Shown: positions 55,921 to 56,563 of the stretch, piece after piece
How the letters are laid out: the number at the start of each line of letters is the position of its first letter
Numbering within the stretch: position 1 is the stretch's first letter
DNA from: Escherichia phage MiataMamis
Strand: one strand, 5' to 3'
Length of the DNA: 64,000 nucleotides
Sequence record: PP925834.1
Translations under genes and position numbers: made by a program
Notes under the pieces: generated by a model
What the model was told of the DNA's origin: nothing
Seen by the model: only the letters and a program-made list of their open reading frames with translations
Databases searched by the model: none

Positions 55921-55947
55921 TATAGTAAGTAATAATTTTAAAACATG

Positions 55948-56014
55948 GTACTTAGGATCTAGTATATTCTACATAAGTTAAGTATATGTACTTAGTACCA
56001 TAAGTACTAGATCT
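55948..56014. repeat. AT-rich block with inverted repeat GATCTAGTA / TACTAGATC and direct GTACTTAG repeats
   Basis: 9-bp perfect inverted arms at about 55955-55963 and 56005-56013; GTACTTAG at 55948 and 55989; region is strongly AT-rich. Confidence 0.55.
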
Positions 56015-56055
56015 TTTATTTTTTATTATTTAGTTATTTTAGTTATATTCTTTAT

Positions 56056-56138
56056 GTGTCCGTATCACGGACAGTTAGTGTCCGTATTACGGGCAGATGT
56101 GTCCGCGTGACGGACAGTAGTGTCCGTATCACGGACAG
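56056..56138. repeat. array of four 17-19 bp palindromic iterons (consensus GTGTCCGT-ATC-ACGGACAG) phased at 21-22 bp
   Basis: Copies at 56056-56074, 56078-56096, 56099-56117 and 56120-56138; copies 1 and 4 identical, 2 and 3 have 2-3 substitutions; each is a 7-3-7 dyad. Confidence 0.85.
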
Positions 56139-56212
56139 TTACTGACCTCTGTTCCAGAGCGAACATAAAACATACGAATCCTTATAGTACAGATATTTAA
56201 GTTTTTACTGGT

Positions 56213-56563
56213 CTAACCAGTTGTTGACATTCGAATAACCTCTTCTGGTGGCAAAACTTTGGAAAATGTACATCTTTTACCTCTCCCTTGTGTGGATATT
56301 TCAACCACTCCTGCACATTCTAAAGTTTTAACGCACGCTGCTGCTTTTGTTTTCTTTATCCCAACATCTGCTGCAATTTTCCTTGTGCTTGGTGTGAAGC
56401 GTGAATTTCCTCCAAGCTTATACCAGTTGTGCAGGTAGCAGTATACGATCTTGTCATATAAGTCAAGAACAACAACCTCCCCAGTTGTGTCATTCAAAAC
56501 TTTTGACATAGACAGTATTTCAAGGGGGACTTTAAGATATAGCAGCTTATCCCCATCTTTCAT
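56213..56563 (-). CDS. putative helix-turn-helix DNA-binding protein
   Basis: 116 aa; segment TPSTRKIAADVGIKKTKAAACVKTLECAGVV has HTH character; gene ends 75 bp from the iteron array. Confidence 0.45.
   Translation of the reverse strand: MKDGDKLLYLKVPLEILSMSKVLNDTTGEVVVLDLYDKIVYCYLHNWYKLGGNSRFTPSTRKIAADVGIKKTKAAACVKTLECAGVVEISTQGRGKRCTFSKVLPPEEVIRMSTTG

Follow-up and report, generated by a model that had tools for sequence, protein, structure and literature searches.

Why does a phage keep four evenly spaced palindromes between the end of a small winged-helix gene and the most AT-rich stretch of its genome? The question is posed by a 64,000-nucleotide stretch of Escherichia phage MiataMamis (record PP925834.1), here called the window, which comes from a Vequintavirus, an rV5-like myophage of Escherichia coli. 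The region is 98–99% identical in more than 100 Vequintavirus genomes, including those of rV5, FV3, slur16, phages of the BASEL collection and others. A literature search returned no description of the dyad, of Vequintavirus iterons or of an origin for these phages, and in some GenBank records the array figures as a 'repeat_region' without comment. An initial annotation, made from the letters alone, had offered a replication origin, a partition site or a multi-operator switch as explanations. Among these options the origin is now best supported: with a probability of roughly 0.6, the locus is predicted to be the iteron-type replication origin of the rV5-like phages, or one of their origins, with a layout like that of lambda ori and an initiator consisting of a binding domain only. 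The origin is favoured because the neighbouring protein of 116 amino acids (aa) is homologous to the DNA-binding domain of PLE RepA (Protein Data Bank, PDB, entry 4RO3) and matches replication-initiation families in PHROGs, and because the array occurs once in the genome, beside the most AT-rich tract, in the order of elements seen in lambda ori.

The array consists of four dyad iterons of the form TGTCCG-N5-CGGACA (56056..56140, assigned to neither strand), whose cores occupy positions 56057–73, 56079–95, 56100–16 and 56121–37. The four copies 21–22 base pairs (bp) apart that had been reported from 56056, 56078, 56099 and 56120 are borne out, those starts including a flanking G. The full dyad, TGTCCGT-ATC-ACGGACA, is 17 bp long, the copies carry zero to one mismatch to it, and their spacing of 22, 21 and 21 bp is equivalent to two helical turns. 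The dyad of 17–19 bp with an ATC centre that was first described holds good as a 17-bp dyad, but the effective half-sites are 6 bp (TGTCCG and CGGACA) and the central 5 bp are variable. Within the window the dyad is matched six times at three or fewer mismatches, a number reached by none of 100 shuffles. In the complete rV5 genome of 138 kilobases (kb), matches with at most one mismatch are confined to the four array sites, and the half-site TGTCCG alone is not enriched (22 observed versus 26 expected). Among the matches listed by Tandem Repeats Finder for this genome, up to about 119 kb, the array is the highest-scoring tandem repeat (scores of 126 and 110, the next being 65).

Adjoining the array is an AT-rich block (55926..56055, again assigned to neither strand), a candidate DNA-unwinding element made up of interleaved inverted repeats and GTACTTAG direct repeats. 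The 120-nucleotide (nt) segment with the highest AT content of the whole 138-kb genome adjoins the array (80.8%, the runner-up having 75%); the content reaches 83% over the 60 nt closest to the array and 93% over the richest 40 nt. The inverted repeats pair 55945–55955 with 55991–56001 and 55956–55964 with 56005–56013, and the GTACTTAG copies start at 55948 and 55988; the second pair is the 9-bp inverted repeat that had been recorded, correctly, together with the direct repeats. As the two pairs are interleaved (A B ... A' B'), a single simple cruciform is impossible. On the plus strand the block contains GATCTTTTATTTT (56010..56022), an exact match to GATCTnTTnTTTT, the consensus of the 13-mers of the E. 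coli oriC unwinding element (PMC4451416). This is the sole match to the consensus on either strand of the rV5 genome and, being a single copy, is suggestive only of an unwinding element. DnaA boxes and integration host factor consensus sites were not found near the locus.

Conservation singles out the same elements. In an alignment of five Vequintaviruses, one of 48 half-site columns and eight of the 130 columns of the AT block are variable, as compared with four of 20 central positions and 14 columns in the 30-nt stretch between gene and array. In a metagenomic variant whose protein is 71% identical, CTGTCCGTCACACGGACAG is kept and the next dyad follows at +22, whereas the spacer after the stop codon is unalignable. 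Since half-sites and AT block are conserved while the neighbouring DNA varies, selection bears on both the sequence of the half-sites and the AT block.

The gene beside the array (56213..56563, minus strand; rV5 gp075 or ORF79) encodes a winged-helix protein of 116 aa, the predicted origin-binding protein. Its adjacency to the array, first remarked upon as that of a gene with a helix-turn-helix-like segment, stands; the placement of the array upstream of it does not, as the gene lies on the minus strand and the array is found 3' of its stop codon, at a distance of approximately 75 nt, rather than in the promoter. The label is 'putative transcriptional regulator' in most GenBank records and 'replication initiation protein' in RefSeq and PHROGs. 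The protein matches PHROGs family 12838 and, more weakly, families 8102, 428 and 270, all labelled replication initiation, and precomputed Pfam results assign PF13730 to its cluster representative. Close relatives were found by tblastn and word-based protein searching in Vequintavirus only; 118 genomes preserve both length and sequence, and so do variants with as little as 71% identity. An exhaustive HMMER search was needed to reach relatives of approximately 30% identity, which are 180–217 aa long and combine the same N-terminal domain with C-terminal extensions.

When these distant relatives are included in the alignment, AlphaFold2 yields a confident model (predicted local distance difference test, pLDDT, 81); a shallow alignment gives a pLDDT of 47, which is unusable. 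The modelled chain runs from a beta hairpin through a long helix and a winged helix-turn-helix to a short C-terminal helix, the winged-helix fold of RepA_N and DnaD N-terminal domains. Of the solved structures, 4RO3, which is the DNA-binding N-terminal domain of PLE RepA from Vibrio, comes closest to the protein. Foldseek then ranks staphylococcal RepA_N domains, the RepA–iteron complex 5KBJ among them, as the next matches over the full length, and several of the best matches in predicted viral structures carry the name of a replication protein. PLE RepA is a proven initiator: it binds semi-palindromic iterons and replication requires it, and its own assignment to RepA_N was made by structure only (PMC7145576). 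The 116-aa protein is thus predicted, from sequence and modelled fold, to be the equivalent of the N-terminal DNA-binding domain of RepA_N-like or O-like initiators, devoid of the C-terminal domain. ORF192, which lies beyond the array, was considered as a possible bearer of the missing domain and rejected: it does not resemble the C-terminal parts of array-containing initiators and matches nothing in Pfam or the PDB.

Many of the longer homologues, the 180–217-aa relatives among them, end in an acidic ...(I/L/A)P(F/Y) tail, examples being DEDPDAPF, DCDEAPF, NDDMVLPF and QQFLPPF (proteins P0011, P0012 and P0020–P0027, and open reading frames, ORFs, in contigs L016 and L041). The tail resembles the C-terminal tip of the bacterial single-stranded DNA-binding protein SSB (DDDIPF), an analogy which suggests that the tailed homologues may recruit SSB-interacting replication proteins. 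The rV5 protein does not have such a tail.

Whether protein and repeats belong together can be judged from divergent relatives. A 137-kb contig of the IMG/VR database, L071, shares with rV5 the phosphoesterase, a GC-rich non-coding element and ORF192 (83% identity). The syntenic position, between the phosphoesterase and the GC-rich element with ORF192, is taken by a gp075 homologue of 143 aa with 23% identity (hhalign probability 97.5%; PHROGs 8102 and 12838). Starting at the stop codon of this homologue, there are five copies of a different dyad (half-sites TGATRCA and TGYATCA; spacing 33, 21, 34 and 22), followed by an AT-rich tract, and TGTCCG dyads are absent. As protein and repeats both differ at the same position, the small winged-helix gene, the dyad array and the AT tract form a swappable cassette in which protein and repeats change together. 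The search for the dyad in related genomes that the initial annotation had proposed has produced near-invariant half-sites in five Vequintaviruses, their retention in the 71%-identity variant and a different dyad in L071. Other relatives are less uniform. The loci L008 and L009, with homologues of approximately 31% identity, have no comparable dyad array and display, next to an AT-rich tract, only two (C)AGGTACA repeats with a spacing of 22 bp. In Klebsiella phage BIS47, a Mydovirus, a 105-aa homologue (L072 671–1265; hhalign 97.9%) is located at the divergent transcription point and adjoins a very AT-rich 277-bp intergenic region with GATC-containing palindromes, so that the origin layout may differ between genera of the Vequintavirinae.

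The rV5 dyad itself recurs well outside this group. A scan of IMG/VR and bacterial contigs for the exact pattern of two adjacent TGTCCG-N5-CGGACA dyads retrieved 18 viral contigs in seven unrelated groups, with GC contents of 40–70%, and 37 bacterial contigs from many phyla. The arrays comprise 2–7 copies spaced 20–25 bp apart, and in most viral groups they are situated inside or directly after an ORF with a winged-helix N-terminus. Representative proteins of five of the seven groups match PHROGs named replication initiation, replication initiation O-like or DnaD-like helicase loader, PHROG 270 being recurrent. The same arrangement of array and initiator is seen in four bacterial prophage-like loci, and in one of Actinoplanes the gene after the array-carrying gene encodes the DnaB helicase. 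Among the 2702 ORFs of the 55 array loci, the gp075 family profile matched ten, all of which adjoin or span an array (E-values here relate to a small custom database); iterating the profile over these loci gave no extension beyond one contig group and a Treponema locus. A 169-kb contig, L023, reproduces the rV5 layout, with a stand-alone winged-helix gene of approximately 120 aa whose stop codon lies 6 nt before the array and with AT-rich flanks. In most of 13 other array loci with an identified initiator ORF, the DNA just downstream of the array is AT-richer than the locus mean and the upstream flank; the enrichment is strong in about five of them, with 62% versus 35% and 72% versus 54% as clear examples. 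Because protein and repeats co-vary in L071 and the same dyad recurs at homologous genes in unrelated viral contigs, the link between the 116-aa protein and the repeats, and with it the earlier proposal that the adjacent gene encodes the binding protein, is strongly supported at the level of sequence comparison.

How does this arrangement relate to known systems? In phage lambda the origin sits in the middle of the initiator gene O (PMC7466680). The lambda sequence displays four 18-bp dyad iterons with a spacing of 20, 24 and 23 bp, followed by an AT-rich tract. In RepA_N plasmids the origin likewise lies midway through the initiator gene. The rV5 locus shares with lambda ori the number of iterons, their length of about 18 bp, a spacing of roughly two turns (22/21/21 bp in rV5) and the polarity from the coding region of the binding domain through the iterons to the AT-rich tract; in both cases the origin lies in a transcribed region and the initiator binds as dimers, which for rV5 is a prediction. 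Unlike those of lambda, the rV5 iterons come after the stop codon rather than inside the gene, and the rV5 protein is without the C-terminal domain that recruits P–DnaB, the phage bringing its own T7-type replisome. The two proteins have no detectable sequence relationship: homology to lambda O was tried and rejected, as hhalign of the family profile gave a probability of 0.06.

The RepA_N initiators are closer at the level of the protein. Over its whole length the 116-aa protein is homologous in sequence and fold to their N-terminal domain, as represented by PLE RepA (4RO3) and by RepA of the staphylococcal plasmids pSK41 and pTZ2162 (4PQL, 4PT7, 5KBJ). Like the rV5 dyads, the iterons of PLE RepA are semi-palindromic direct repeats, and its partners are a T7-like replisome and a superfamily 1B (SF1B) helicase, both being protein kinds that rV5 encodes. 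The rV5 system differs in lacking the C-terminal domain and a match to PF06970, in having iterons that do not converge on a poly-A tract, and in its carrier, a large lytic phage instead of a plasmid or satellite. The third comparison is with the PHROG 270-type 'replication initiation / O-like' proteins, which have PHROG matches 270, 428 and 8102 in common with the rV5 protein. Their loci show identical half-sites in 2–7 copies with a spacing of 20–25 bp, a winged-helix N-terminus encoded just upstream of the array and, in most cases, an AT-richer tract downstream. In these proteins, however, one ORF reads through the iterons into a C-terminal domain, the arrangement known from lambda O, whereas the rV5 and L023 genes stop before the array, with no C-terminal domain found for either.

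An iteron origin is expected to combine tandem repeats in helical phase, a directly flanking AT-rich element and a cognate initiator. The first two are present in the form of the four dyads at 22/21/21 bp and the adjoining AT block; as to the third, the gene lies next to the array, its product is related to the DNA-binding domains of initiators, and protein and repeats co-vary, all of which points to putative binding. Binding, unwinding, replisome loading and initiation at the locus are steps that we infer, and they may be envisaged as follows. The 116-aa protein, a RepA_N-like winged-helix DNA-binding domain, would be expressed early from its own sigma-70-type promoter and would bind each of the four dyads as a dimer, the half-site centres, 11 bp apart, facing successive major grooves. 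The two-turn repeat would place the four dimers on one face of the DNA, possibly in a bent or wrapped complex like the lambda O-some, and this complex would destabilize the adjoining AT-rich block. The T7-type primase-helicase and polymerase of the phage would then load at the opened block, possibly helped by an SF1B (PIF1/RecD-like) helicase and by transcription through the site. Suitable components are encoded by rV5, namely a T7-like polymerase, a gp4-type primase-helicase and a PIF1/RecD helicase, and PLE RepA depends on machinery of the same kind, a T7-like replisome and an SF1B helicase supplied by ICP1.

Several results weigh against an origin. One is the protein itself, which ends after the wing and one helix and is devoid of a C-terminal domain to recruit a helicase or primase; recruitment is therefore the weakest step of the scheme. 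Pfam scores fall just short of the gathering thresholds for DUF6945 (27.1 versus 28 bits) and HTH_36 (24.5 versus 25 bits), and neither RepA_N (PF06970) nor Phage_rep_O is matched at E ≤ 1. The BIS47 homologue is not accompanied by a clear dyad array. The recurrence scan is biased by the use of the TGTCCG dyad itself as the query, and it also found this dyad at the 3' end of sigma-54 activator genes in Burkholderiales, so that the motif is not exclusive to initiators. Finally, the global minimum of cumulative GC skew lies approximately 1 kb from the array, which agrees with an origin, but it coincides with a switch in transcription direction and is not independent evidence. The authors of the rV5 genome, who had applied skew analysis in search of an origin, likewise obtained only transcription-direction switches, one of them 1.5 kb from the array.

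Could the array serve transcription instead? The minus strand holds every gene from the divergent point at 57640/57684 down to the transfer RNA (tRNA) cluster at 52859–53674. In the direction of transcription, a polynucleotide-kinase-like ATPase and a metallophosphoesterase precede the 116-aa gene (56563 to 56213), and the spacer of about 75 nt, the four dyads, the AT-rich block, a conserved GC-rich element of approximately 350 nt and ORF192 follow it. A consensus scan detects a sigma-70-like promoter just upstream of the 116-aa gene (56598..56627, minus strand; TTGACA-18-TATTTT with TG), at the very position where the rV5 record carries the annotated promoter P76, and the promoter and terminator scan predicts no terminator-like site between gene and array. 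Transcription from this promoter would therefore cross the array and the AT block. The scan placed no site inside either element, and no sigma-70-like promoter within 55900–56200 on either strand, phage-specific promoter types being outside its scope.

A regulator bound to four in-phase operators after its own gene could block or modulate such read-through, or could act on an unrecognized phage promoter in the AT block; the GC-rich element, ORF192 and the tRNA cluster would lie downstream, and the device would time a shift from early to later expression. The prevailing GenBank label suits this explanation, as does the position of the array in a transcribed, terminator-free stretch between two gene blocks of the same strand. 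Many initiators double as regulators, and co-variation of protein and site is equally expected of a repressor–operator pair. Winged-helix repressors such as those of the MarR/SlyA, GntR and CodY types are also small dimeric proteins (a predicted property in rV5) acting on palindromic sites, and the winged-helix core resembles MarR/SlyA, CodY and Crp-family regulators, with weak profile matches to MarR/SlyA and CodY. The resemblance to ordinary transcription factors, however, is limited to a core of 60–75 residues, the rV5 protein has neither an effector nor a dimerization domain, and its specific homology is to initiator domains (4RO3, RepA_N, replication PHROGs) and not to any regulator family. 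The dyads overlap or adjoin no sigma-70-like promoter, they lie 3' of the gene, which is not the position of classical autoregulation, they stand as four in-phase copies beside the AT-richest tract, and the one locus in 138 kb leaves no other target. In other phages the dyads occur inside long initiator ORFs beside AT tracts, once with DnaB as the next gene, an arrangement that would make no sense for an operator. A transcriptional switch or roadblock in place of an origin is accordingly considered rather unlikely, though such a role may accompany that of an origin.

Another explanation grants the kinship with initiators and disputes the firing. The locus could be a remnant or derivative of a full initiator module that acts negatively, by titration, handcuffing or competition, or that is directed at related phages or satellites sharing its iterons during co-infection. 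In support, the rV5 protein is without the C-terminal domain that all fused homologues possess, the occurrence of the same dyad in many unrelated elements makes cross-talk conceivable, and the sites of iteron plasmids serve initiation and copy control alike (PMC3401445). Against decay, the length and sequence of the protein are maintained in 118 genomes and in the variants down to 71% identity, and L023 and L071 independently display the stand-alone layout, which looks more like a working design. The AT block is as well conserved as the dyads, which points to a function in unwinding. A purely negative control element is thus improbable.

A packaging (pac) or partition site is more improbable still. 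Small terminase subunits and centromere-binding proteins are small helix-turn-helix proteins on repeat arrays, the small terminase is unannotated in rV5, and the assembly of phage A141 is linearized exactly at the array. The large terminase gene, however, is separated from the array by about 5 kb that include lysis and tRNA genes, and the simplest account of the A141 break point is an artefact that the assembler produced at a repeat. Partition, one of the options first put forward, is rejected: no ParA-, ParM- or TubZ-type NTPase is encoded next to the array, the neighbours being the metallophosphoesterase and a polynucleotide-kinase-type AAA_33 P-loop protein; moreover, the phage is strictly lytic, and all specific homology is to replication initiators. 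Scarcely credible, lastly, is an RNA element in which four GC-rich hairpins (7-bp stem, 3-nt loop) in the 3' untranslated region would stabilize or process the transcript of the 116-aa gene: the region is transcribed and every dyad can fold on either strand, but the stem sequence itself is conserved among the four copies and in unrelated phages of 40–70% GC, with variation in the loop, the two imperfect copies allow wobble pairing on opposite strands, so that neither RNA strand is favoured, U-tracts do not follow the hairpins and strict two-turn phasing has no rationale in RNA.

If the locus is an iteron-type origin, it would be a further member of this class with an unusual initiator, and its protein would be a naturally occurring RepA_N-like DNA-binding domain that functions in the absence of the C-terminal domain, a case relevant to how RepA_N initiators load the replisome. 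A bolder proposal, held only tentatively, is that rV5 possesses a minimal initiator, a RepA_N-like DNA-binding domain and nothing else, and that TGTCCG-N5-CGGACA is an iteron 'word' shared by a large superfamily of initiators in phages and prophages across bacterial phyla. Were this so, the origin could open without a recruiting domain, since the remodelled set of four in-phase iterons next to an extreme AT tract would suffice to let the T7-type primase-helicase or the SF1B helicase enter, and stand-alone and fused (domain–iterons–domain) forms would interconvert. One dyad recurring in initiator genes across hosts of 40–70% GC also provides a simple sequence signature for origins of phages and prophages. 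rV5-like phages are common candidates for therapy and biocontrol and form part of the BASEL collection. The predicted origin and the gene of its binding protein, together approximately 650 bp, offer a direct target for marker-frequency and binding experiments, and a possible engineering handle for conditional replication, reporter phages and origin-based plasmids that replicate only upon infection.

A number of further observations were made in the course of the analysis. In Burkholderiales contigs from metagenome-assembled genomes (L042, L044, L050, L052, L055, L062 and L070), two dyads start at the very end of NtrC-type, sigma-54-dependent activator genes, which end ...ISRATLYEKLAEIKR; a third dyad follows approximately 76 bp further on, and these copies are possibly enhancer sites. 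In a metagenome-assembled genome of Myxococcales (L068 1014–3484), two identical dyad pairs flank a 2.4-kb segment that appears by eye to encode a transposase and a VapBC-like toxin–antitoxin pair, and it looks as though a mobile element had inserted into, or duplicated, a dyad array. Outside the window, at the other major switch of transcription and skew, rV5 has a 2.6-kb gene-free gap (104013–106618; L014 4013–6618) that holds the tandem repeats TTACATGCCCAATAGC (2.3 copies) and GTTTACAAACAAACT (3.5 copies) as well as AT-rich windows; a role as second origin, terminus or packaging region is conceivable. Eighteen records named 'Campylobacter phage' (MG065672.1, which is A141, and 17 others) are 98–99% identical to the rV5-like phages of E. 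coli, and A141 is linearized at precisely the first dyad of the array, most likely because the assembly broke at the repeat.

Between the AT block and ORF192 lies the GC-rich non-coding element (55560–55915, minus strand), about 350 nt long with up to 58% GC. Vequintaviruses show hardly any variation in it, and the divergent contig L071 has retained it despite the replacement of the neighbouring cassette. Folding is stable (z = −3.2) and includes several strong hairpins; some records place an ORF of 56 aa within the element. Rfam searches at gathering and permissive thresholds returned tRNAs only, and nothing at the array or the GC-rich block. With conservation this high, covariation is uninformative (three compensatory pairs of 104); the element is probably a structured RNA or a 5' leader. 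Within the tRNA cluster, a 99-nt tRNA-like gene (53104–53202, minus strand) is assigned a four-base anticodon (atcc) by ARAGORN and is listed as tRNA-OTHER or tRNA-Lys in other records; it is possibly an intron-containing or frameshift-suppressor-like tRNA.

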